The notes beneath the pieces were generated by a model. It saw only the letters and a list, made by a program, of their open reading frames with translations, was not told the origin of the DNA and made no database searches. Below, in pieces: positions 9,324 to 59,915 of a DNA stretch of 64,000 nt. The stretch's first letter is position 1. Each line of letters begins with the position of its first letter. Both the position numbers and the translations under genes were made by a program. Source of the stretch: a virus; the IMG/VR virus record IMGVR_UViG_3300046459_000436, positions 16,674 through 80,673 of that record. One strand, given 5' to 3'.

Positions 9324-10022
9324 TCAAGCTGCGACCGATTCTCCAGGGGTGCCGTGGAGGGCATCGCGGAGCTTCTCCCACGCTTCACGGTCGGGCCATT
9401 CGGTGCCGCAGCCCTGACACTTGATGGCCTCCTTCCGGGTGGACGCGGTGAGTTGGCGTTTGCACGGGCCGTCAACGGTGAGGACCGGGCAGGCGCCAAT
9501 GCGGATGGGCCCGATCCTCCGATCCGGCGACAGAGCAGCCGTGCACTCGGAGTGCAGCCGCCGGATCTCCTCCACGTCCTGCCCGACCTCCGCGTACCGT
9601 TCGCACGCCCACCCGAGGTTGTTGGTCAGGAACTCGATCTGCTTGGGCAGGGATTGGCCGGCGTTGCCGCGCCACGGTGTGACCGTCCAGCCGAGGGTCT
9701 GCCGCCACGCGTCCTCAATTACCTGCAGACGGGTGGCGACTCCTCCAGCCGCGGCGAGGTTGAGGACTTCGGCGTTGGCGGGGATCGGCGGCACGCGCGA
9801 CCCGGTGGGCATCCCGGTTCCACGCCGGGAGCCCCGGACGAGCGCGGCGGTCGTGTTGACGCGGGCGAAGAGGGCGGGGAGTTCGGCGAGCCGCTTCCCG
9901 GTGCGGTCCTGACAGGGACGGCACGCCCAGCGGTCGGTCTCGTCGGCCCACAGGTCTTTGCTGCAGGCCACGCAGCGCGGCCACACGTAGCTGGAGTCTT
10001 CGGCGGTAGCAAGGTCGTGCAC
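9324..10022 (-). CDS. Zn-finger phage protein, possible late-gene regulator
   Basis: CVAC...CRPC and IGACP...C...CQGCG motifs; position before the late operon. Confidence 0.55.
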   Translation of the reverse strand: MHDLATAEDSSYVWPRCVACSKDLWADETDRWACRPCQDRTGKRLAELPALFARVNTTAALVRGSRRGTGMPTGSRVPPIPANAEVLNLAAAGGVATRLQVIEDAWRQTLGWTVTPWRGNAGQSLPKQIEFLTNNLGWACERYAEVGQDVEEIRRLHSECTAALSPDRRIGPIRIGACPVLTVDGPCKRQLTASTRKEAIKCQGCGTEWPDREAWEKLRDALHGTPGESVAA

Positions 10023-10052: not shown

Positions 10053-10391
10053 TCAATGGCTGATGTAGATGGTCGCCTTGGTGTGGGCGGCGCAGGCATC
10101 ACGGAGGCGACGCAGATAGTCGAGGGCGCCGTCGTAGTTGCCCCAGCCATTGGTGGGGTTCATGGCCTCGTACTTGGCGGGGTTGGCTTCCATATCCGCA
10201 ACGGCGCGGCTGAGGTCGCCGATGCAGTCGCCAGCCGTCTTGTCCTTCAACTCGGCAAGTCGGTAGCCGAGGGCTTCGGTCCACATGCTGGAGACGTTGG
10301 CGGTGTAGTTGCCGATGTCGGCGGGGCAGAACTCGTGGGGCTCGGGGCCGCCCGTGTCGACTGTGACGTAGAGGGCGATGTCGTAGCTCAC
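10053..10391 (-). CDS. Hypothetical phage protein
   Basis: MSYDI...NYTANVSSMW...NGWGNYDGAL; RBS. Confidence 0.65.
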   Translation of the reverse strand: MSYDIALYVTVDTGGPEPHEFCPADIGNYTANVSSMWTEALGYRLAELKDKTAGDCIGDLSRAVADMEANPAKYEAMNPTNGWGNYDGALDYLRRLRDACAAHTKATIYISH

Positions 10392-14155: not shown

Positions 14156-16384
14156 TCAGGCAGCCTCCGGGGAGGCGAACTGGTCCCGCTTGAAGCCCTT
14201 CAGGCGCTTCCCGGCACCGAAGGTCACGATGTTCGTTGTTGTGATCCCATCCCGGCGCAGACGCTCCCGCAGAGCATCCACATCAACGCCCAGCTCCTCG
14301 GCCAGCAACTCAGCCGTCAGCCCCTGCGTCTCCGGAACCCCCAGCCGATCGAACACCGCCACCGCATCCCGGCGCATCTCCGCCGCACGCGCCACCGCCT
14401 CATCGACACGACTACGCGACGCCGCCTGACCCGTCAGCGTCCCGGCCTTCACCCGCAGGTCGTAGCCGCGCTCCACGATCTCCCGGAACTCCGGCAGCTC
14501 GATCACATCGGACTTCTGCGTGATGTGACCCGACTCCGCACCCTGGTCCAAGACCACGACACCCTTGTGGTGCTCCAGCAGCTTGTGCGGCGCCGCGCCG
14601 GCCTGCACGGCGTCGTCGCCGAGAACCATCCGCGCGGAGGCGTCGCCCTTGACCCGAAAGCAGGCGCGCTTCACGCACACCCCGCGCAGCTTGGTCGGGA
14701 CGCTGTCGGAGTCGGGGCGCTGGGTGATGAACACGCCCATGCCGCCGACGAACCGGGCCACGCGCACGTACCGGGCGAGGGTCTCGACCAGCACGTCCTT
14801 GCCGTTGCGGTGCTTCGCGCCCTTGCCGTCCTCGTCCTCCTCGACGACCTTGACGCGGGTGTTCGCGGCGGCGTCCAGGAGTTCCTGGAGCTCGTCGACG
14901 ATGAGGAGGGTGAGCCTCTTGTCGGGCTGCCGGGCAAGCGCCGGGGTGAGCTTGCCTTCGGGGCACTGCTGGGGGTCGGTCTCGGACAGGCTCTCCAGCT
15001 GCTCGCCGAGGTTCTGCATGCTGCCGATCAGGTCGTCCAGCACCTCGTGGACTTCGACGAGGGTGTCCGGCTTGGAGCCGGAAATGTAGGCGTGGGCGAT
15101 CTTCTTGAGGGCTGCCCAGTCCGGCCCGGACTTGCCGGTGATGACGATGATCCGCACGTAGGGGTCGAGGGCAGCTGCAGCAGCGATCAGCCGTGCCAGG
15201 TACGACTTGCCGTAGTCCTGCAGTCCGCCGATCAGCAGCGACGACCACAGCAGGTGCAGTGCCTGCCGGTCATGCCGGGCGTCCTGGCCGAGCGGTACGC
15301 CGTGCTGCCAGAAGTTCCACTCGGGGGCGTTGATCAGGGGGGACGGGGTCTTTCCGGCGCCGAACGGGTTGTCGGCGTCGGCGACCCAGATGGTGAATCG
15401 GCTCTCGTGCCCCTCGGCGCTGGTGTCCTTCTTCAGTTCGATGCGGGACGCCTTGACGCGCAGTGCGCCGGCGAGCGGTACGAGGCGGGCGATGGCCTGC
15501 TCTGCGGTGCGTCCGCCGGGCAGTTCGATGGTGGCGGTCCAGCCGGGGCCGTCGGTGCGCAGGCCGAGGACGCTGGTCTCTTCGCGGTCGGCCTCCTCGA
15601 TGATCTTCGCTTTGACGAGGGCGGTGACCAGGTCGTTCGCACCCCGCACCTGCACGTCCTCGGACTTCGTGAGCACGACCGGACCCGCAGCACTCGCGGA
15701 GGCCGCGGCGGCGATGGTGGCGGGCGACTCAGCGGCCAGCGTCACCGGAGACGACTCCTTGTCGTCGGCTTCGCGGTTCCGCCCCGCCCACCAGGCCGCA
15801 CCGAACCCTCCGAGGAGGACGGCGAGGAGGCCGAGGATGGGGTGCTGCATCTTCCCCAGCAGCATCCAGCCGGCCACCACGCCCGCGGCGACCATGGCGC
15901 ACCGACTGGCCTGCTGGGTGCGCTTGTGGCGCTTGATGTCCTTCTCGGTGACGTCGTCGTCGGCGTGCGGGAGGACGGGGCCGACGGTGACGCGCGTGGC
16001 GAACGCCTGGTTGAAGCGGTCCGCCTGCCCGGGGTGCCCCTGGTTGGCGGCGGTGGCGGCCTGCTTCTGCAGGTCCCGGACTTCGCTGTGGTGCTGGCGG
16101 ATGGCCTTGCGGTTCTCGGCAGCCCGCTTGTGGATGACGTCCTTGGCGAGGTTCTCCTCGTCGACACCTTCAAGGAGCACCCAGGCGCGGCCCTGCTGGT
16201 AGAGGGTCTGGCAGCCGCGCTTGGTCTGCGCCCACACGGTCAGCTTGACGACCGGCGGCGGGGCATCGGCGGGCACCGGCTTGAGGAGTACGTGGGCGGG
16301 CGGGTTGGTGGGCATGGGCGGGACGTGATTCTGGACCGGGATCTGGGGGCCCGCCGTCTCGGGCGGGGTGGCGTGCGTGGTCAT
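14156..16384 (-). CDS. traB: FtsK/SpoIIIE-family conjugative DNA translocase (TraB-like)
   Basis: 2 TM segments, Walker A LLIGGLQDYGKS, Walker B LLIVDELQE, TQRP motif, C-terminal wHTH-like region. Confidence 0.88.
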   Translation of the reverse strand: MTTHATPPETAGPQIPVQNHVPPMPTNPPAHVLLKPVPADAPPPVVKLTVWAQTKRGCQTLYQQGRAWVLLEGVDEENLAKDVIHKRAAENRKAIRQHHSEVRDLQKQAATAANQGHPGQADRFNQAFATRVTVGPVLPHADDDVTEKDIKRHKRTQQASRCAMVAAGVVAGWMLLGKMQHPILGLLAVLLGGFGAAWWAGRNREADDKESSPVTLAAESPATIAAAASASAAGPVVLTKSEDVQVRGANDLVTALVKAKIIEEADREETSVLGLRTDGPGWTATIELPGGRTAEQAIARLVPLAGALRVKASRIELKKDTSAEGHESRFTIWVADADNPFGAGKTPSPLINAPEWNFWQHGVPLGQDARHDRQALHLLWSSLLIGGLQDYGKSYLARLIAAAAALDPYVRIIVITGKSGPDWAALKKIAHAYISGSKPDTLVEVHEVLDDLIGSMQNLGEQLESLSETDPQQCPEGKLTPALARQPDKRLTLLIVDELQELLDAAANTRVKVVEEDEDGKGAKHRNGKDVLVETLARYVRVARFVGGMGVFITQRPDSDSVPTKLRGVCVKRACFRVKGDASARMVLGDDAVQAGAAPHKLLEHHKGVVVLDQGAESGHITQKSDVIELPEFREIVERGYDLRVKAGTLTGQAASRSRVDEAVARAAEMRRDAVAVFDRLGVPETQGLTAELLAEELGVDVDALRERLRRDGITTTNIVTFGAGKRLKGFKRDQFASPEAA

Positions 16385-16407
16385 GGCGGCGGGGCTCCAG
16401 GCTTGGG

Positions 16408-16947
16408 TTAGAAGTTGGTGAGGGTGTTGGCGGCAGCGGTGACGGCGGAGTTGGTGAGCTGCTTGATCAGCGGGCCGACGAACGTCCCGTCCAGGAGCAC
16501 CCCGAGCGCGACGAGCGTGATCGCCCAGCTGGCGGCGACCTTCCGGCCCTTGATGCCGATGAACACGATCACGCCGATCAGCATCAGGCCGACGATGCCA
16601 ACGCCGATCGTGCCGCCGCTGACGTTCGCCGGCGTGACGTTGTTGACGGCCGGGGTGACGTTCGTGTCGACCACGGGGGCGACGGACGGCTGGACGGCGG
16701 CCACGGTGACGACCGCAGCCGAGTGGTCGGCGGTGGCCGTGTAGTGGGTGGTGGGCAGGCCCCGGACGGTCATGGCGCGGGTGCCGTCGGCGAGGCGGAC
16801 GCTGGTGTCGGTGGCGGCCTGGACGGAGGTCACGGTCGCGGTGTGCTGGGTGGCTGCGGCGACCGCCGGGGTGGCGATCCCGAGCGCCGCCAGAGCAGCA
16901 CCCGACAGGGCCACGGAGCGGACGATACGGATGGACTGGCGGGACAT
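16408..16947 (-). CDS. Signal-peptide/membrane protein, putative spread (Spd) protein
   Basis: N-terminal signal peptide, two C-terminal TM helices; adjacent to traB. Confidence 0.6.
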   Translation of the reverse strand: MSRQSIRIVRSVALSGAALAALGIATPAVAAATQHTATVTSVQAATDTSVRLADGTRAMTVRGLPTTHYTATADHSAAVVTVAAVQPSVAPVVDTNVTPAVNNVTPANVSGGTIGVGIVGLMLIGVIVFIGIKGRKVAASWAITLVALGVLLDGTFVGPLIKQLTNSAVTAAANTLTNF

Positions 16948-16967
16948 GATGGGGACTCCTTCGAGGG

Positions 16968-18389
16968 TCAGTTCTGGTCGGTGTTTGAGGTGTTCTCGGT
17001 GGCGAGCCGACGACGTACATCGACGGCCTGCGCGCGCTTTGCGATGGGGTGGAACGGGGCGCTGTCGCCGCGTGTCCGGCGGGGCGGAATCGGCTTCGGT
17101 CGGGGACTGGTTCGGGGCTTCGCGGGAGAGGGGGATAGATGGGAGCTACGCTGCGCGTTCGTGACCTTGCTGGGTGTGTTCCCGGGGGCTTCTGAGAGGG
17201 CCGCTGCGACGCGTCGTGCGGCGACGTTGCGGGTGCGGATGACGTCGACGCTGTCGCCCGGGTCGGTGCCCTCGATGTCTCTGTAGGCGCGGATCCAAAC
17301 GGCTTCGGTCACGGTCGTCTCGCCGAGCGCGGCAGCCAGCTTCAGTGCGTGCTCCCACACCTCCTGGAACTCCTTAGCGCGGTCAGTGGCGAGCTTGTTC
17401 GCGGCTTCCTCGGCAGCCTTGAGATCCGCCGCCTTCGCGTCGTCGGCAGCCTTCTTCTCTGCGGCCTTCCCGGCCGCCGCGCGGGCCTCGGCCTTCTCCT
17501 TCGCCTTGCGCTCCCGACGGGTGAGCGCGCCGTCACGCTTACGGATCCGGCCGTGCTCGTGGAGATCCCAGACGCCCGGGCCGGCGACGGACGCGAACGC
17601 GGTACCGATGGCGGTCGCCGGGTCGAAGGCGTTCAGGCCGTGCCACAGGTTGACCCCGGCGGCGATGAACGCCAGCAGCCACGCGATGAGCCGGTAGTGC
17701 CAGTGCGGACGGTGCCCGGCGACCGCGGCGGCAGCACCCTTGAGGACGACCGCCGCACCACCTTCGAGCATGAGCGGGGCGATCACGAGCCACGGGGCGA
17801 CGGGGGTCCAGAACGCGGCGATCTGCACAGGCAGGGCGACGACGGCGCACACGATGTAGAAGCCGAGGGCGTACCGGCGCCACCGGGCGTCGGCGACGGC
17901 GATCTCCTTCGCCGCCTTGTCGGCGGCTTCCTGCTGAATCCGCTGCTCCTCAGCGGCGGACTGCGCTTCGTCGTCGGCCTCCTTGCGGGAGGCGGCGGCC
18001 TGCCGGTCGATCTCCTCCTGCTCGGCCTGGAGTTCGGCGAGCTTCCGGGCGTGCGCGGCCTGCTTCTCCTCCATGGCCATGCGGTTGCGCTCGTTGGCGA
18101 GCCGCAGACGCTCCGCCTCAGCCTCGGCCTTGGCGCGGATCGCGTCGGCCTCGGCGAGGGCCTTCACGCGGGCGGCCTCGACGGCGGCGGCGGTCTGGGC
18201 CCGGATCGCCTCGGCCTCAGCCTCGGCGCGCGGGTCGACGATGGGGACGGGAGTGGCGGCAGGCTCAAGCTCGGGGGCGGTCTGCTCGTCCTGGATGACG
18301 CCGTTGATGATCGGGAACGACTGCCAGCCCTCATACACGGGCACGGCAAGCCGCTTGGTGCCGTTCACCTGGGCCGGGTTGGCGCTCAC
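16968..18389 (-). CDS. DUF2637/SpdB-like coiled-coil plus 4-TM protein
   Basis: Long coiled coil, four TM helices, AGVNLWHG; upstream of traB. Confidence 0.7.
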   Translation of the reverse strand: MSANPAQVNGTKRLAVPVYEGWQSFPIINGVIQDEQTAPELEPAATPVPIVDPRAEAEAEAIRAQTAAAVEAARVKALAEADAIRAKAEAEAERLRLANERNRMAMEEKQAAHARKLAELQAEQEEIDRQAAASRKEADDEAQSAAEEQRIQQEAADKAAKEIAVADARWRRYALGFYIVCAVVALPVQIAAFWTPVAPWLVIAPLMLEGGAAVVLKGAAAAVAGHRPHWHYRLIAWLLAFIAAGVNLWHGLNAFDPATAIGTAFASVAGPGVWDLHEHGRIRKRDGALTRRERKAKEKAEARAAAGKAAEKKAADDAKAADLKAAEEAANKLATDRAKEFQEVWEHALKLAAALGETTVTEAVWIRAYRDIEGTDPGDSVDVIRTRNVAARRVAAALSEAPGNTPSKVTNAQRSSHLSPSPAKPRTSPRPKPIPPRRTRGDSAPFHPIAKRAQAVDVRRRLATENTSNTDQN

Positions 18390-23073: not shown

Positions 23074-23405
23074 CCGACGGCGGCATCCCCGACTACTACA
23101 TGGAGCGCGCGCGCTTCCTCGCCACCGTCAAGGACATCGGCGAGGGGACCGAGGTGGCCGACGCGGCGCTCGACCTGATGATCAGGCTGGAGAGTTCCAT
23201 CCAGTCACCCTGGGCCGTCACGGACCCGTTCGCCGCCGAGCGCTACCTCGTGGCACGCGGAGCCGACCCGGACGTCGCATCCGAGGAGGGTGTCGTCTTC
23301 GAGATCCAGATGCGCGCCCTCGTCGGCATCGGCCTCGGACGCCCCGTCCAGTCGTTCGACGAGATCGCTGACTGGATCGCCGAACACGTCGACACCACCC
23401 CGTAG
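23070..23405 (+). CDS. Hypothetical protein
   Basis: ATGA overlap with the previous gene. Confidence 0.6.
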   Translation: MTDGGIPDYYMERARFLATVKDIGEGTEVADAALDLMIRLESSIQSPWAVTDPFAAERYLVARGADPDVASEEGVVFEIQMRALVGIGLGRPVQSFDEIADWIAEHVDTTP

Positions 23406-23406
23406 T

Positions 23407-23428
23407 TGTCAGTCCCTGCCCGTATCGT
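23407..23428 (+). promoter_or_regulatory. PafBC/RecA-NDp-type DNA-damage promoter upstream of tnpB
   Basis: TGTCAG-N10-TATCGT matches TGTCRG-N10-TANNNT. Confidence 0.65.
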
Positions 23429-23457
23429 CCACCGTGCCGCACCCGAGAGGAGGCCCC

Positions 23458-24975
23458 GTGCAGACCGAGATCCTGAAGGCGTTCAAGTTCGCGCTCGACC
23501 CGACCAGCGCTCAGATCGAGGCCCTGTCGAGGCATGCGGGTGCGGCGCGGTGGGCGTTCAACCACGCACTCGCGGCGAAAGTCGCGGCGCACGAGCAATG
23601 GCGTAGCGAGGTTGCCGCGCTGGTCGAGGCTGGCACTCCCGAGACGGAAGCGCGCAAGAAAGTGCGCGTGCCGATCCCGATGAAGCCGTCGATCCAGAAG
23701 GCCTTGAACCAAGTCAAGGGCGACTCGCGCACGGGAATTGACGGTGTGTGCCCCTGGTGGCATGAGGTCAACACCTACGCCTTCCAGTCCGCATTCATCA
23801 ACGCGGACCGCGCGTGGAAAAACTGGCTCGACTCCCTGTCCGGAAAGCGCGCTGGCCATCGAGTCGGCTATCCCCGATTCAAGAAGAAAGGGCGGACCCA
23901 GGACTCATTCCGTCTGCACCACGACGTAGACAAGCCAAGAATCCGGCTTGCTGGTTACCGTCGGCTGCGCCTGCCAACAATCGGCGAGATTCGGCTGCAT
24001 GACTCGGCGAAGCGTCTGTCACGATTGATCGACCGTGACAATGCGGTGGTGCAGTCGGTGACGGTGTCTCGTGGCGGTCATCGCTGGTACGCCTCCGTCC
24101 TGTGCAAGGTCGTCGTGGATGTCCCAGCGAAGCCGACTCGGCGACAGGCCGGGCGGGGCACCGTGGGAGTAGACCTCGGGGTGAAGTACCTCGCAGCACT
24201 GTCGCAACCGCTCACGGAAGGCAACGAGTCAACCCAACTAGTCCAGAATCCCCGTCATCTACGCCGCACGGAGAAGCGCCTGACGAAGGCGCAGCGCTCT
24301 CTATCTCGAACAGTCAAGGGTTCTGCGCGGCGAGAGAAGGCCAAGCGCCGCGTCGGCCGGCTGCACCACGAGGTGGCGGCACGCCGCGCAAGCGCCCTAC
24401 ATCAGGTGACCAAGCGACTCGCCACTGAATTCGCCGTGGTGGCCCTTGAGGACTTGAACGTCGCCGGGATGACGCGATCCTCTCGGGGCACCGTGGCGGC
24501 GCCGGGGAAACGGGTGCGACAGAAGGCCGGGCTGAACCGAAGCGTTTCGGATGCAGCTCTAGGTGAGTTCCGGCGGCAGGTCACCTACAAGACTTTCTGG
24601 TACGGGTCGAAGCTGGCGGTCTTGGATCGCTGGTTCCCGTCGAGTAAGACCTGTTCGATGTGTGGGTGGCGAAACCCAAACCTCACGCTCAAGAACAGGG
24701 TGTTCCACTGCGACAACTGCGAGACGGCCATGGACCGGGACCTGAATGCAGCCCGGAACATCGCGCGCCATGCGGTGCCGATTGATCAACACGTCGCCTG
24801 CGATACGCGGGAGACGAAAAACGCCCGTGGAGCCCCTACAAGACCGACCATCCCTCGGGATGGCTGGCAAGGAGCGTCGAAGCGGGAAGACGCGGCTCGC
24901 AAGGCCGCGCCACCCCAGCGGAGTAATCCGCTGGCACTCCCACCCGTGGGCCACGGACAGATCACGCTGTTCTAA
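23458..24975 (+). CDS. tnpB: RNA-guided endonuclease TnpB / Cas12-like (505 aa), no tnpA
   Basis: KAFKFALDPT N-terminus; RuvC-I GVDLG, RuvC-II ALEDL, Zn finger CSMC...CDNC, RuvC-III DRDLNAARN; catalytic D-E-D intact. Confidence 0.93.
   Translation: MQTEILKAFKFALDPTSAQIEALSRHAGAARWAFNHALAAKVAAHEQWRSEVAALVEAGTPETEARKKVRVPIPMKPSIQKALNQVKGDSRTGIDGVCPWWHEVNTYAFQSAFINADRAWKNWLDSLSGKRAGHRVGYPRFKKKGRTQDSFRLHHDVDKPRIRLAGYRRLRLPTIGEIRLHDSAKRLSRLIDRDNAVVQSVTVSRGGHRWYASVLCKVVVDVPAKPTRRQAGRGTVGVDLGVKYLAALSQPLTEGNESTQLVQNPRHLRRTEKRLTKAQRSLSRTVKGSARREKAKRRVGRLHHEVAARRASALHQVTKRLATEFAVVALEDLNVAGMTRSSRGTVAAPGKRVRQKAGLNRSVSDAALGEFRRQVTYKTFWYGSKLAVLDRWFPSSKTCSMCGWRNPNLTLKNRVFHCDNCETAMDRDLNAARNIARHAVPIDQHVACDTRETKNARGAPTRPTIPRDGWQGASKREDAARKAAPPQRSNPLALPPVGHGQITLF
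24790..24965 (+). ncRNA. Putative omega RNA scaffold plus guide overlapping the tnpB 3' end
   Basis: Hairpins CCATCCC-TC-GGGATGG, GCGGC-TCGCAAG-GCCGC, CCAGCGGA-GTAA-TCCGCTGG; GGGAG...CTCCC closing; boundaries approximate. Confidence 0.6.
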
Positions 24976-52530: not shown

Positions 52531-53889
52531 ATGCCGTATGTAGAGGTGCGCGGGGGCAGTATCCGCGTCAAGTGGTGGGGTGGCGAGTACAAGACCGCCG
52601 AGGATGGTACGCGGACGAAGAAGTACGAGTCCGCCAGCGGCCCCGAGCCCGGCGTGAAGTTCCGGACCGAGCGGGAGGCCGAGGACTTCGGCAAGGACCG
52701 CGAGTACGAGGTGCGGCACGGCAAGCACATCCGGCGCGTCGACAGCAAGACGCTCATGGAGTCGTACTGCTGGGTCTGGTTCGACGCCGCGGAGGAGCTC
52801 CAGCCGAACAGCGTGAAGAGCTACCGTTCCATGCTGAACGCCGCCATCGTGCCCTACTGGGGCGGCAGGCCGGTCGGCGAGATCACACCCCCCGAGTACG
52901 ACGCGTGGAAGAAACAAATCAAGCAGTCGTACTCGGAGAACTACGTCAAGGGGCTCCTCGGTCTGTTCCGTCGGCTGATGGAAGACGCCGTGGTCAAGTA
53001 CAAGTTGCGCCCCGAGACGCCTGTCGTCGAGCAGCGGCGCCGCGGCCAGTACGTGAAGCGCAACACCCGCCGCGTGAAGCGGATCCTGCCCATCGAGGTC
53101 GTGCACCACCTGGCGACGAACGCCTACACGGTCTGGGGCTTCACCGGCTGGACCTACATCTGGACGGTGGGCTTCACGGGGATGCGCCCGCCCGGAGAGA
53201 TGTACGGCCTGCAGCGCGGCTTCGCCTCGCCGAACTGGCCGGCCTGCGACCCGGACCCGGACCGGCGCGAGGACGCGCTGGAGCGCTACGAGAAGATGCA
53301 CGCCCTGCGGGTGCAGCACCAGACGTACAAGGCGGGCGGCCAGTCGATCCTCGCAGGCCCGAAGTACGGCTCGTACCGGACGCTGGTGATCCCGCCGTTC
53401 CTGCACGACATGCACTCCGCGCTGCTCGCCTCCCACGACTCCCCGTGGGTGTTCACGTCCACGTCCGGCAAGCCCATGCTGGGCTCGCAGTTCCACCGGA
53501 GCTACTGGTGGCCGATCCGGGACGGCGCCCCCGCGCGACGCGGAAGGTTCGAGCGGCCTGCACTTCTGCCCGTGGAGGCGATGGCTGGTCAGGATCTGTA
53601 CCGGCTCCGGCACTGGATGAAGGAGCTCATGGACGAGCCCGGTGCGGATATTGCGAGGGCGGCGGTCGAGGGGCGCATGGGCCACGAACTGCCCGGCGTG
53701 GAGGGCACGTACAGCTACGTCACGCCTGCCATGGAGCGGCGGATCGTCGACTACCTGCAGGGCGTGTGGGAAACCTTCTGGGCGTCGGGGCCCTGGTGGG
53801 CTCCCCCATTTCCCAAACCTCTCCCAGATGGGCAACGGGCGGTAAATTCGCCCCTGTTCAGCGGGCTGCCGATCATTGGTGAGCATTGA
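52531..53889 (+). CDS. int: Tyrosine integrase
   Basis: N-terminal arm-binding region, FTGMRPPGE, GPKY, YRLRHW, RMGHE...TYSY. Confidence 0.9.
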   Translation: MPYVEVRGGSIRVKWWGGEYKTAEDGTRTKKYESASGPEPGVKFRTEREAEDFGKDREYEVRHGKHIRRVDSKTLMESYCWVWFDAAEELQPNSVKSYRSMLNAAIVPYWGGRPVGEITPPEYDAWKKQIKQSYSENYVKGLLGLFRRLMEDAVVKYKLRPETPVVEQRRRGQYVKRNTRRVKRILPIEVVHHLATNAYTVWGFTGWTYIWTVGFTGMRPPGEMYGLQRGFASPNWPACDPDPDRREDALERYEKMHALRVQHQTYKAGGQSILAGPKYGSYRTLVIPPFLHDMHSALLASHDSPWVFTSTSGKPMLGSQFHRSYWWPIRDGAPARRGRFERPALLPVEAMAGQDLYRLRHWMKELMDEPGADIARAAVEGRMGHELPGVEGTYSYVTPAMERRIVDYLQGVWETFWASGPWWAPPFPKPLPDGQRAVNSPLFSGLPIIGEH

Positions 53890-54444: not shown

Positions 54445-54690
54445 GTGCCACAAGATCCGCCCGACTGGGCCCTTGCCCGCCGCCGCGAGATCGGCCAACG
54501 ACTCCGCGCTCGCCGCCGCACCGCAGGCCTGTCCATGGAGCGGCTCGGCGAACAGGTCCGCGGCGTCGACCGGCGCACCGTCTCCGCCTGGGAGTACGGC
54601 ACCAGCGACCCGACCCTCACCGACCTGCTGCTCATTGCTCACGCCCTCGGGATCCCGGCCGCCGACCTCATCGCCGACCCGCCGGAGTAG
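54445..54690 (+). CDS. XRE HTH protein
   Basis: PDWALARRREIGQRLRARR...VSAWEYGTSDPTL. Confidence 0.85.
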   Translation: MPQDPPDWALARRREIGQRLRARRRTAGLSMERLGEQVRGVDRRTVSAWEYGTSDPTLTDLLLIAHALGIPAADLIADPPE

Positions 54691-55819: not shown

Positions 55820-56092
55820 ATGAGCATCGTGATCCCTCCCGCCTTGGCCGACCTGCAGCGCACCGCGACCGACACCTTCGAGACGATCAGCGCCTACGAG
55901 GAGCAGGTGGCCAAGCCAGCGTTGGAGTGGTCGGACGAGGAGCGGGCCCGGCTGGCGGAGTTGTGGGCGGCTACGAATGCGGCGGCGGATGCGCTGCGGG
56001 CCGCCATCGACGCGTCGGGGCTGGAGCAGGGTGACGGGTACGAGTTCCAGCGGGCGTTGAAGGCAGCCGCGCGGGAGTCGCTCAACGGCTGA
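55820..56092 (+). CDS. Hypothetical protein
   Basis: ORF track; promoter directly upstream. Confidence 0.65.
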   Translation: MSIVIPPALADLQRTATDTFETISAYEEQVAKPALEWSDEERARLAELWAATNAAADALRAAIDASGLEQGDGYEFQRALKAAARESLNG

Positions 56093-56252
56093 AGGACTGG
56101 AACGCCGCCCGCTCCACGCGCCCGGCACTCGCCGCGTCGGGCATGATGCGCGCCAGTGCGGGTGATGCGGCGGCGCTGCCCCGGGAGGCCAGTTCCGCGA
56201 GGGGGATGCGGCGGCGGGTCTGGGGTGCTGCGGGCGGCTGGGTGTCGGGCAT
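56082..56252 (-). CDS. FxSxx-COOH (FxsA)-like RiPP precursor peptide, 56 aa, orphan
   Basis: Own translation MPDTQPPAAPQTRRRIPLAELASRGSAAASPALARIMPDAASAGRVERAAFQSFSR; GAGGAG RBS; too short for the ORF track. Confidence 0.7.
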   Translation of the reverse strand: MPDTQPPAAPQTRRRIPLAELASRGSAAASPALARIMPDAASAGRVERAAFQSFSR

Positions 56253-56327
56253 CGGGGCTCCTCAAGTGGGGCGGCCTCGACTCGACGGGGGCGCGAGCCG
56301 AGGCCTGAAGTGAGGGTAGCGCGGGGG

Positions 56328-56588
56328 CTACGTGTGGACGGCGTGAGCGGCCACAGCAGCCCGGACGCTGTAGGCCACATTCGCAACGGTGTCCCCGCCG
56401 GTGGTGGCGAGGTCTCCGAGCGCGGGCAGGGCTTTGGCGATCTGCTCGTCGGGCCACGGTTCGCCCCATGCTCCGTCGATGTCGCGCTGGAGCCATGCGG
56501 CAGCGGCTTCGATGTCCGCGCGGGAGTGCCCGGTCGTGGCGGCCATATCGCGGATCGCGGCTTCTACAGTGTCGGTCACGGCTTCCAT
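56328..56588 (-). CDS. Hypothetical protein
   Basis: ORF track; operon context. Confidence 0.5.
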   Translation of the reverse strand: MEAVTDTVEAAIRDMAATTGHSRADIEAAAAWLQRDIDGAWGEPWPDEQIAKALPALGDLATTGGDTVANVAYSVRAAVAAHAVHT

Positions 56589-56742
56589 TCCTTGCGGTAG
56601 TCAGCGTAGGGCAGTGCGAGGAGCGGGAAGTCGGCCTGGTTGTAGTCGATGGCGCGAACCACTCGATGTGCAGCAGGATCGCCGCCTTGTCGCGCTGGCA
56701 GTCGATCGCGGGGTCACCCCCACACAACTCGCAACGGGTCAC
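56576..56742 (-). pseudogene. Degenerate DUF6221-like fragment
   Basis: DPAIDCQRDKAAILLH in one frame and LLALPYADYRKEWKP* in another. Confidence 0.35.
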
Positions 56743-58061
56743 GGCAACGGCTTCTTCTGCCAGTAGTCCGGGCGGGCGCCCCCGTTGAGGTGGTCGATCA
56801 AGTCGTCCATCGCCTTGCCAGGATCTATTGCGAGGTGCAGGAGACGGGAGTACTCCGCGTATGCCTCACGGTCGGCTGCGGTCAGGCCACGGCTCATCTT
56901 CCGGTCCCAGTAGGACCCTTCGCTCTCGAAGCGATCGAGAAGTTCATCTCGATTCAGCGTAGACAGGTCATTCTCGGTGAGCCGTTTGAATGCTGGCACG
57001 GCCAGTCCCCTCAGGTGCGCCTTCATTGGAGCGGGTCCCATCCGGCGCCCTCATCCCCGTCGAGCCACGCGTAGTAGTCGCTGCCCTGCCACGCGGTATG
57101 CCGTCCGTGATGGCCGCGTTCTCCGCAGTACGCCGTGTCGGGCATCGGGTCTTCGCGGAAGGTGGCAAGGCAGGTCGCCACGTCGTCCTGGTCGGGCCCG
57201 TACTTGCAGCCGGGCGCGTGCGGGAACGGGAACCGGTTGGACCGCTCACCGCACCCGTCGCCGTCGCAGACGTCGTATCCGAAACTGGTCATGACCGCTC
57301 CGCCGCCTTGATCGTTGCTCGGAATGGCGAGGCGGCGGCCGTGTACGAGCTCGCCGGGTTCGCCGCATCCACACTCGCAGGGCTCGACGTTCGGCGCGGT
57401 TACTGGAGCGACGGGCTCCTTGGGCATCGGCCACTGGTTGGTCCACTTGTCCTGATGCACTTTGCCGCCGTGTCCGGCAGACAGTACGCACGGGCTGGTG
57501 CCTGATCGCGGCTCGGGCTCGCGCGCCCCGCAGGTGTCGGTCACGACTGCTCACCCGCCGCGTCGGCGATCTCCTTCAGTTTCTCGATCAGCGCGGGCAG
57601 TTCGGAGAGCGGGACACTGCTGCCGTTCGGGTCGGTCTTGAAGTACACGCCACCGCCAGCATCGGGGATGTCGGCCGTCGTGATGAGCAGTCGGTCGCCG
57701 TCCACGTCGGCGTAGGTGAACTTCGGCGGCTGCGCGTTGACGACCGTAACGATGCTGGTCCGGGTTCGCGGGGTTTCAGCGGTGCCCACTGGCTCTCCTT
57801 GCTGCTCGATTGGGGCGGTCACGAGGTCACCACGACGGTGGCTCATGCGATCCGGTCCGGCTCGACCATCCACGTGAGGTCGATGACCTCGTCGTCTCCG
57901 GGTTGCCGCTTGGTGGGGTCGACGGCGACGAGGCCTGTGACCTCCACGAGCGTCTTCCCGCCGTGGTAGTGGATGTCACGGATAGCGACGAGCCCGCCGA
58001 TGGGGTTGACGCGCGTCGGATGCGGGACGAGGTTGCGGACCTCGCCGACGGTGATGGGCAT
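56739..58061 (-). CDS. Operon of four hypothetical genes (56739-57026, 57023-57544, 57541-57822, 57843-58061)
   Basis: Coupled ORFs divergent from the RHH gene. Confidence 0.55.
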
Positions 58062-58077
58062 CTCATTTCCCCTGCTC

Positions 58078-58132
58078 GTAGGTGGTTGACCACCTACAAT
58101 ATGGCACACCCTGGACAGGTGGTCAACCACCC
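58078..58132. promoter_or_regulatory. Twin palindromic operators
   Basis: GTAGGTGGT-TG-ACCACCTAC and AGGTGGTCAACCACCC. Confidence 0.75.
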
Positions 58133-58147
58133 TGGCAAGATTGCCCC

Positions 58148-58339
58148 ATGGCCAACATGCACAAGGAGAAGCTGCGCGGAGTGCGCGGCGTAGACGACCA
58201 GCTCTGGACCGACTTCGAAGCGGCTACCGCCCGAGCCGATAGCGACCGATCGGCCGAGCTCCGGCGCTACATGGAGTGGTACGTGCGGCGACCCGGTGCG
58301 GAACATCCCCGCAGACCCCAAGAATCCGAAGCGCCATAG
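58148..58339 (+). CDS. Ribbon-helix-helix regulator
   Basis: LRGVRGVDDQLWTDF...RSAELRRYMEWY. Confidence 0.78.
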   Translation: MANMHKEKLRGVRGVDDQLWTDFEAATARADSDRSAELRRYMEWYVRRPGAEHPRRPQESEAP

Positions 58340-58871: not shown

Positions 58872-59915
58872 ATGGACAAGGAACTCGAACCGATCGTGGA
58901 AGCCGAACTCGTCCTCGACGAGGAAGCGTCACGCGAACGCGACCACCACCTGTCCGGCGAGACGATCGCCGACCTGAAGCGGGCCACCGCCGCAGCCACG
59001 GACCGCGCATACGACCGATGGTGGAAGATGGCCCTCGCCTGGTGCGAGAGCGAGCAGCGCACCCCGCTCCCCATGACCGCAGAGACCCTCGCCGAGTTCA
59101 TCGGCCACCTCAAGCGATCCACATCGCCAAAGACCGGCAAGCCCTGGGCGCCGGCGAGCCTTAACCAGGCCGTGGCCGCCGTCCGTACCGCCCACTTCCG
59201 CGCTGGGTTCGAAGGTCGGCCGAATACTCGTGCCGCAATCGACCTCATCAAGGTGCACCGCCAGGACCGCGCGAAGGACGGCTGGCGAGCCCGGCGGGCC
59301 AACCCCGTCACCCTCGAAGTGCTGCGCCTTCTCCTGGCCCGCTGCGATCAGAACGCGCTCAGCGGCCGACGGGATGCCGCCGTCCTTGTGCTCGGGTACG
59401 GGCTGATGGGGCGCCGGTCGGAGTTGGCGGCCTGTCGCATCGAGCAACTCACCCTCGGCGATGCATGGCTGACCGTCTTCATCCCCATGTCCAAGACCGA
59501 CCAGGACGCGCAGGGCGAAGACGTCGACATCCCCCGCACCCTGGCTCCCGACATCGACGCCGTGGCCATCGTGCGCAGCTACCTGGATGGACTCGGCGAG
59601 CGTGGAATCACCGATGGTCCGCTACTCCGAAGCATCGACCGATGGGGGAACCTCGGCGAGAGCATCTCAGGAGAGGGGATCAGTGACATCGTCGTGAAGC
59701 TCGCACGCGAGGCGAATCTGACGGACGCAGAACGGACCACCGCGCACGGCCTCCGGGCCGGCGGACCGACCGATGCAGCCGAGCGTGGTGTCCCCATCCC
59801 CTTCATTGCCGAGCATGGCCGCTGGAGCAAGAACTCCACTCAGGTGCTGACCTACGTGCGTCCTGCTGACCGGCGCCGGAACAATCCGCTTCTGCCGCGC
59901 GACAACCGCGCGTAA
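58872..59915 (+). CDS. Cre-like tyrosine recombinase/resolvase
   Basis: TDRAYDRWW, RDAAVLVLGY..MGRRSEL, SKTDQ, HGLRAGG, GRW...TY. Confidence 0.9.
   Translation: MDKELEPIVEAELVLDEEASRERDHHLSGETIADLKRATAAATDRAYDRWWKMALAWCESEQRTPLPMTAETLAEFIGHLKRSTSPKTGKPWAPASLNQAVAAVRTAHFRAGFEGRPNTRAAIDLIKVHRQDRAKDGWRARRANPVTLEVLRLLLARCDQNALSGRRDAAVLVLGYGLMGRRSELAACRIEQLTLGDAWLTVFIPMSKTDQDAQGEDVDIPRTLAPDIDAVAIVRSYLDGLGERGITDGPLLRSIDRWGNLGESISGEGISDIVVKLAREANLTDAERTTAHGLRAGGPTDAAERGVPIPFIAEHGRWSKNSTQVLTYVRPADRRRNNPLLPRDNRA

Follow-up and report, generated by a model that had tools for sequence, protein, structure and literature searches.

The window analysed here is a 64,000-nt stretch of viral DNA corresponding to bases 16674-80673 of an 80,673-bp IMG/VR record. 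On its minus strand lies a short ORF closed by a TGA codon (Table 1), the translation of which is MPDTQPPAAPQTRRRIPLAELASRGSAAASPALARIMPDAASAGRVERAAFQSFSR. The original prediction had singled out an unlisted 56-aa ORF with a strong ribosome-binding site (RBS) as an FxSxx-COOH (FxsA)-like precursor peptide carried by a phage. We found this ORF with a GAGGAG element 5 nt ahead of its ATG, and the leader pattern and C-terminus that had been quoted (RIPLAEL...ALARIMP and AAFQSFSR) read exactly so in the sequence. The RBS, in the form GGAGGAG, is kept in two other viral contigs, L003 and L004 (alignment A2). In the leader, the columns R14, R15, I16, L18, E20, L21, A22, S23, R24, G25, and S26 were invariant (alignment A1), as were R35 and P38 on the leader side and V46, A49, and FQSFS in the core.

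Table 1. Positions in the window of the phage fxsA gene, its neighbours, and other genes mentioned in the text.
Feature	Position	Strand	Remarks
HNH/homing-endonuclease-like gene	868-1848	minus	
FtsK/SpoIIIE-like (TraB-type) ATPase	14156-17020	minus	
TnpB/transposase-like gene	23290-24975	plus	
Tyrosine integrase	52531-53889	plus	phrog_1, E 8e-22; fxsA 2.2 kb away
XRE-type repressor-like HTH protein	54445-54690	plus	PHROG families of transcriptional repressors, E ~1e-10; immunity region
Convergent 90-aa gene	55820-56092	plus	3' end overlaps fxsA stop region by 11 nt; GC3 0.91
fxsA-like ORF	56082-56252	minus	56 aa + TGA stop; TIGR04268 match, homology, dN/dS
Core FQSFSR, residues 51-56	56085-56102	minus	F51, Q52, S53, F54, S55 invariant in 31 sequences
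Leader motif RRRIPLAELASRGS, residues 13-26	56175-56216	minus	near-invariant in phage and bacterial alleles
RBS GAGGAG	56258-56263	minus	5 nt ahead of fxsA ATG, read from sequence
33-nt GC-rich hairpin in 5' leader	56273-56305	minus	invariant in three group-A phages
Five co-oriented small ORFs (86, 100, 173, 110, 95 aa)	56328-58130	minus	upstream of fxsA
Second tyrosine recombinase	58872-59915	plus	phrog_1, E 1e-14

The FxSxx-COOH model of NCBIfam (TIGR04268) matched the phage peptide with an E-value of 2.3e-5 and a score of 24.5 bits, which falls below its curated cut-off of 28 bits; model positions 4-42 of 44 covered residues 14-53, and R56 lies past the end of the model. The same model gave 22.9 bits for the FxsA of Streptomyces sp. 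NBC_01262, 29.9 bits for that of Streptomyces sp. NBC_01537, and 30.5 bits for a phage allele of group B (P0018, see below). Since the NBC_01262 FxsA, which is embedded in an fxs locus, scores lower still than the phage peptide, the low score appears to be a property of the allele group and not the mark of a degenerate phage copy. TIGR04268 under-calls this allele group, the NBC_01262 FxsA (WP_329312047.1, P0069) being named "hypothetical protein" because its 22.9 bits are below 28. A search of 5.8 billion proteins gave 35 homologues of the phage peptide (E 1e-8 to 1e-24, 72-96% identity), including proteins named by NCBI as "FxSxx-COOH cyclophane-containing RiPP peptides" from Streptomyces and Actinacidiphila, and a phmmer search against 1.8 billion representatives recovered six clusters only. 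With 35 homologues, the similarity is far above chance level, and the ORF encodes a true precursor of the FxsA family. It has the same leader motif and C-terminal Phe-x-Ser core as the known FxsA/FxSxx-COOH precursors (TIGR04268, with FxsB as TIGR04269; the SjiA family, NF040585; triceptides). PF27839 is precomputed on near-identical proteins; the Pfam search of the phage peptide itself gave no match, the PF27839 model being perhaps not covered. With tblastn against cultured phages, the peptide returned only noise (E >= 3).

In the TIGR04268 alignment, F51-Q52-S53 falls on the FxS of the model, and the tail that follows consists of three residues (FSR), not two. This extra C-terminal residue had been taken in the original prediction as a feature of a phage decoy. 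The chromosomal FxsA of NBC_01262 and NBC_01537, each adjoining FxsB, also end in FQSFSR, and the FxsA of ten other genomes end in FQSFSSK; the reading of it as a phage-specific decoy signature was therefore rejected as unsupported. More distant FxsA relatives terminate in the canonical FQSFV or FQSSI, whereas the phage peptide and its host alleles end in FQSFSR (FxSxxx), the end GRV(D/E)RAAFQSFSR being common to the phage peptide and the NBC_01262 FxsA. By this comparison, the C-terminal extension is real for the FxsA subfamily and is no phage adaptation. Triceptide maturases act on aromatic-X-X motifs, in which they bond the aromatic ring to residue three at its beta-carbon, and paracyclophanes have been observed for those acting on Phe motifs, MscB included (PMC11499958). 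Two such motifs, FQS and FSR, occupy the last six residues of the phage FxsA, so that FQSFSR can be read as two tandem cyclophane motifs exactly filling the C-terminus.

Conservation in other phages, on which the original prediction had been made to depend, was found: nine further IMG/VR contigs hold the peptide, and a broader profile returned the same nine viral loci. The carriers form two lineages, group A (the window, L003, and L004) and group B (L005-L011, L028, and L031), which share essentially no other genes and have fxsA at different sites. In group A, fxsA lies near the integrase and repressor genes and converges with a conserved 90-aa gene; in group B, it is two genes upstream of the large terminase and portal, with a conserved 180-aa gene in between. 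Every near-complete carrier encodes a tyrosine integrase. Each phage copy is compact and either has abrupt limits of homology or lies between direct repeats, the cassette of the window measuring about 220 bp. The group-B gene is bracketed by an imperfect direct repeat (L011 3599-3620 and 3797-3818, 21/22 nt, 198 nt apart; the counterpart in L009 at 9947-9972 and 10152-10177) that takes in two stop codons, that of fxsA and that of the gene before it, and has the look of a scar left by insertion or duplication. Downstream of the group-B fxsA there is a strong hairpin (about L009 10171-10205).

The fxsA gene of the window is placed in a lysogeny/accessory region. A second tyrosine recombinase lies 5 kb from the main integrase, and an HTH gene of the region has 76% DNA identity to one in Streptomyces phage Mulchroom. 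Homologues of the convergent 90-aa gene adjoin fxsA in L003 and L004, making it a conserved group-A neighbour; it had no Pfam, PHROG, or PADLOC match. The place of the five small ORFs upstream of fxsA is held by other genes in L003 and L004, and in a rhizosphere metagenome (X4) there are contigs with 56263 joined to 58335 and 56305 to 58332, junctions that indicate relatives without 2.0-2.1 kb of these five genes and with fxsA retained. On such comparisons, the five ORFs are variable accessory genes, swapped or missing in relatives. When the neighbouring small ORFs were searched against Pfam, PHROGs, and PADLOC, the sole match was that of one ORF to phrog_29184 (unknown function). Homology among the group-A phages begins at the 33-nt hairpin in the 5' leader of fxsA and ends shortly past its stop codon. 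The hairpin is present in a single copy in the window, and elsewhere only in the two other group-A viral contigs; the fold of 56250-56305 has a free energy of -30.2 kcal/mol (z -3.3). The three phages show many synonymous changes in the coding sequence, yet the hairpin, which lies directly ahead of the fxsA RBS, is 100% identical in them; it may therefore serve the cassette in regulation or RNA stability. A terminator consensus scan found none.

In the phage record we noted a terminal repeat of 127 bp and an overall GC content of 69%, and CheckV puts its completeness at 100%. Its genes include those for the portal, large terminase, major head protein, head-tail adaptor, and tape measure, as well as an endolysin, a DnaB-type helicase, a DNA methyltransferase, and a tyrosine integrase. 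The carrier is a temperate tailed phage (siphophage), complete at 80.7 kb. It also encodes an HNH/homing-endonuclease-like protein directly downstream of the portal gene, inside the packaging/head block, an FtsK/SpoIIIE-like ATPase, and a TnpB/transposase-like protein (Table 1).

The peptide gene is an orphan on this phage. The lack of a radical SAM gene, first noticed for the window, extends to the entire record: TIGR04269 (FxsB) had no match in the whole 80,673 bp, and neither had the radical SAM family PF04055, which was matched in 14 of 14 control genomes. FxsB was also not found in five related viral records, two of them 97% and 100% complete. A tblastn search of the phage DNA examined with the host FxsB, AAC(3)-like, FxsC, and FxsT proteins gave nothing at E <= 0.01, and no FxsT-type (NF040586) or TPR_12 (PF13424) protein was found in the phage genome. 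Looking for fxsB, fxsC, and fxsT in the rest of the phage, as had been suggested, thus yielded none of the three, whereas the host-type locus has them all. The phage does not hold a complete Fxs system (FxsB, FxsC, and FxsT in the locus or genome), and, unlike in FxsA/FxsB loci, its copy of the peptide gene stands without FxsB, HExxH, AAC(3)-like, FxsC, or FxsT anywhere in the genome. We are close to certain of both the identity of fxsA and its orphan status on the phage.

Compared with Streptomyces FxsA encoded directly upstream of FxsB, the phage peptide is 72-90% identical. The subfamily was present in 12 of the 401 sampled Streptomycetaceae genomes, the closest allele being that of NBC_01262 (43/48 identities, 90%, E 5e-28 by BLASTP), over a stretch that begins at the RRRIPL leader motif and runs through to the C-terminus; the genome was recognised as this strain by exact matches of its FxsB and acetyltransferase. 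Its locus has the order fxsA-fxsB-(AAC(3)-like)-fxsC (TIR-like)-fxsT, and its FxsB scores 569 bits on TIGR04269. The NBC_01537 FxsA, 80% identical to the phage peptide, is encoded directly ahead of an FxsB with radical SAM/SPASM domains and a HExxH beta-hydroxylase-type extension (567 bits on TIGR04269), and the next genes encode in turn an acetyltransferase of the AAC(3)-like kind, the TIR-like FxsC, and FxsT (1054 bits), in which a KGGVGR AAA domain is joined to an FxSxx_TPR region. The composition of fxs loci given in the original prediction, with FxsB, FxsC, and an NTPase/TPR protein FxsT, is therefore borne out in NBC_01537 and NBC_01262. Phage copies of FxsA are shorter than the host alleles by roughly 8-10 N-terminal leader residues.

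Some features of the bacterial loci can be mentioned here. In both Streptomyces loci examined, the AAC(3)-like N-acetyltransferase gene lies between fxsB and fxsC (L012 12363-13376; L026 16670-17467), and its product may perform a further peptide-modifying step and not be a resistance protein. Bacterial fxsA (L012, L014-L023) is preceded, some 60-110 nt ahead of the start codon, by a conserved AT-rich stretch in which TCCGGGAT ... ATTCCGGACA form a pair resembling an inverted repeat, a candidate promoter/operator of the fxs operon; this region was missing from all phage fxsA copies compared. One Streptomycetaceae genome (G144:C18:37314-38112; L024, L025) has two tandem fxsA-like genes ~660 bp apart, with 72% and 62% identity to the query.

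Substitution rates were estimated by the Nei-Gojobori method on 45 alignable codons. Between the window and L003, dS was 0.45 and dN 0.06 (dN/dS 0.14); between groups A and B, dS ranged from 0.56 to 1.37 and dN from 0.10 to 0.18 (dN/dS 0.09-0.28); and between the window and NBC_01262, dS was 1.08 and dN 0.08 (dN/dS 0.07). Phage-phage pairs with a dS of 0.45-0.9 gave dN/dS values of 0.09-0.21. Such low dN while synonymous sites are near saturation shows that fxsA is translated and under purifying selection in the phages, and was not picked up recently. In a tree of 135 nt, which leaves the number and direction of fxsA transfers unsettled, both phage lineages grouped with the NBC_01262 allele, the other bacterial alleles standing apart with a support of 98.

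These data bear on two further readings, a chance ORF and a neutral passenger. GC content by codon position did not single out the fxsA frame (GC3 0.84, no better than the 0.86 of one antisense frame, with a high GC2), so that composition alone would not prove a gene and could agree with a chance ORF in 69% GC DNA. This reading is effectively refuted by the 35 homologues and the strong purifying selection in frame, to which the HMM match and the conserved RBS may be added. That the phages carry a neutral passenger, a fragment of host DNA acquired and not lost yet, could suit a tiny gene in a variable accessory region with cargo turnover, but we find it distinctly improbable: dS to the closest host allele is near saturation with a dN of only 0.08, the gene is kept in two unrelated phage lineages and across diverged members of each, and what was kept is the ORF with its RBS and leader, without the host promoter region or fxsB.

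The host is probably a Streptomyces, as suggested by the peptide similarity, the GC content, the Streptomyces-phage-like genes, and co-occurrence in metagenomes. An fxs locus 99% identical in protein to that of NBC_01262 was found on contigs from metagenomes Ga0307517 and Ga0307508, which also yielded group-B phage contigs, and the region of the window is present in rhizosphere, root, and soil metagenome runs. A search of five fxsA-positive Streptomycetaceae genomes for the phage portal gave no match, and there were no tRNA genes in the window. Comparison of the integrase-adjacent region with NBC_01262 and NBC_01537 gave only weak matches of ~32 nt, and neither a convincing attB nor a prophage of the lineage of the window was found in NBC_01262; the host assignment thus stays inferential.

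Kaur et al. (2020, PMC7159879) described FxSxx peptide-processing modules in the conflict systems that multicellular bacteria possess, linked there to AP-ATPase/TPR and TIR proteins. FxsC, which combines an active with an inactive TIR, and FxsT, a fusion of ParA to an inactive TIR that has more sensor-type domains as well, have been called "TIR-ParA apoptosis systems," functionally uncharacterised, and the FxsAB peptide has been proposed to be an antiviral molecule or a diffusible alarm (bioRxiv 10.64898/2026.10.19.760177). The closest host loci match this architecture (TIR-like FxsC, FxsT with KGGVGR AAA and TPR), of which the phage copies the peptide component. Both papers (10.64898/2026.10.19.760177, PMC7159879) cover cellular loci only, and we found no mention of a phage-borne fxsA in them nor in the other full-text literature searched.

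From these sequence comparisons, hijacking or steering of the host Fxs module would be the best reading. Since the recognition leader is conserved, FxsB of an fxs-positive host would recognise the phage peptide and mature it in trans. The peptide would receive host-type modifications, that is, one or more cyclophane rings on FQS/FSR together with whatever the HExxH and acetyltransferase modules add, and, as its core is identical to that of the host and invariant in every phage copy, the phage gene would give the same mature product as the host peptide. Through this product the phage could control the peptide arm of the module formed by FxsC (TIR) and FxsT (ParA-like ATPase with TPR), which is predicted to be a suicide-type immune system. 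By ligand or antitoxin-type mimicry, the peptide would stay available, and the module silent, in situations such as infection, prophage induction, or collapse of host expression, in which the supply of host peptide would shift. That the steering would consist in such silencing is the version we favour, at about even odds. More doubtful, although possible, is a specific form of it, in which the FxsT sensor and the FxsC TIR effector are both kept inactive by mature FxsA as an "all is well" ligand, and temperate Streptomyces phages have repeatedly captured fxsA so that the radical SAM maturase of the host makes their counter-defence.

A comparable logic may be seen in known phage mimics. The pseudo-ToxI RNA of phage PhiTE counters ToxIN, and Dmd of T4 counters RnlA/LsoA, a phage copy or substitute of the labile, non-toxic part keeping the toxic arm off. 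Unlike these, the phage FxsA is a ribosomal peptide that would need modification by a host enzyme, and FxsA as the "off" component is only supposed. What we found is a selected phage homologue of a component of a host locus, as expected of a phage anti-defence mimic, the locus being immune by published prediction only; the immune role of Fxs is itself a prediction. The effect of an extra supply of peptide hinges on the sign of the peptide signal: if the published view of the peptide as an output is right, additional phage peptide would not obviously silence anything. The missing 8-10 N-terminal leader residues could also impair the processing or export of the phage peptide.

The serious rival to silencing, given that the carriers are temperate, is lysogenic conversion, in which a prophage fxsA would lead to more mature peptide via the host FxsB, and the lysogen would gain from an Fxs alarm or antiviral output that is strengthened or armed in advance when other phages superinfect. 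We regard it as unlikely, although the temperate nature of all carriers found, with a tyrosine integrase in every near-complete one, fits such a role equally well, the phage core is identical to that of the host, published models treat the peptide as an antiviral molecule or diffusible alarm, and the group-A gene sits in the accessory region close to the integrase and repressor. Against it, the host already has fxsA heading the operon, leaving little evident gain from an extra copy, and in group B the gene lies just ahead of the packaging genes, outside the immunity region. The same identity of the cores weighs the other way on a dead-end competitive decoy, whose leader would occupy FxsB, give no active product, and block maturation of the host peptide. 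A fully conserved leader motif (RRRIPLxELASRGS) and shortened N-termini in the phage copies could be expected of such a decoy, but the leader alone would suffice for it, and no phage copy departs from the core FQSFS(R), which is also that of the host; no decoy-specific substitutions were seen, and the "extra residue" is common to host alleles. We hold this reading to be improbable, and the titration of a host system that had been suggested at the outset fits poorly for the same reason.

Communication between phages can be weighed by comparison with arbitrium, the AimP/AimR peptide signalling of Bacillus phages. Here, a secreted peptide made by the host FxsB would report infection density and bias the decision between lysis and lysogeny. 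As in arbitrium, a short peptide gene is carried by temperate phages, all carriers being so; its conserved C-terminal core resembles that of signalling pro-peptides such as AimP, and a TPR-containing protein is present in the host Fxs system as a plausible receptor. Unlike in arbitrium, however, no cognate receptor beside the peptide gene or elsewhere on the phage, TPR_12 or FxsT-like, was found in the Pfam, PHROG, PADLOC, TPR_12, and FxsT-like searches, and the peptide copies one of the host, from a radical-SAM-modified RiPP family, a near-identity that would confound any phage-specific signal. We consider this reading highly improbable.

Steering of the host Fxs module thus remains our preferred reading, with consequences for the Fxs family. 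Fxs loci are found widely among filamentous actinomycetes, and their association of TIR-based suicide immunity with a modified peptide was predicted purely by comparative genomics. That two unrelated phage lineages keep a near-exact copy of the peptide, without the enzymes and with strong purifying selection acting on it, is independent evolutionary evidence that Fxs matters to phages. A known RiPP precursor family is found here in a new setting, standing alone on phages, where it would depend on the enzyme of the host locus, and this single gene of 56 codons offers a simple experimental handle on Fxs. If silencing is true, it would represent a new counter-defence principle, a phage-encoded substrate matured by the host immune locus itself. 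If, in addition, mature FxsA is an "all is well" ligand, it would be the first RiPP-precursor anti-defence factor dependent on the enzyme of the locus that it targets, and a function would be assigned to the peptide arm of Fxs.
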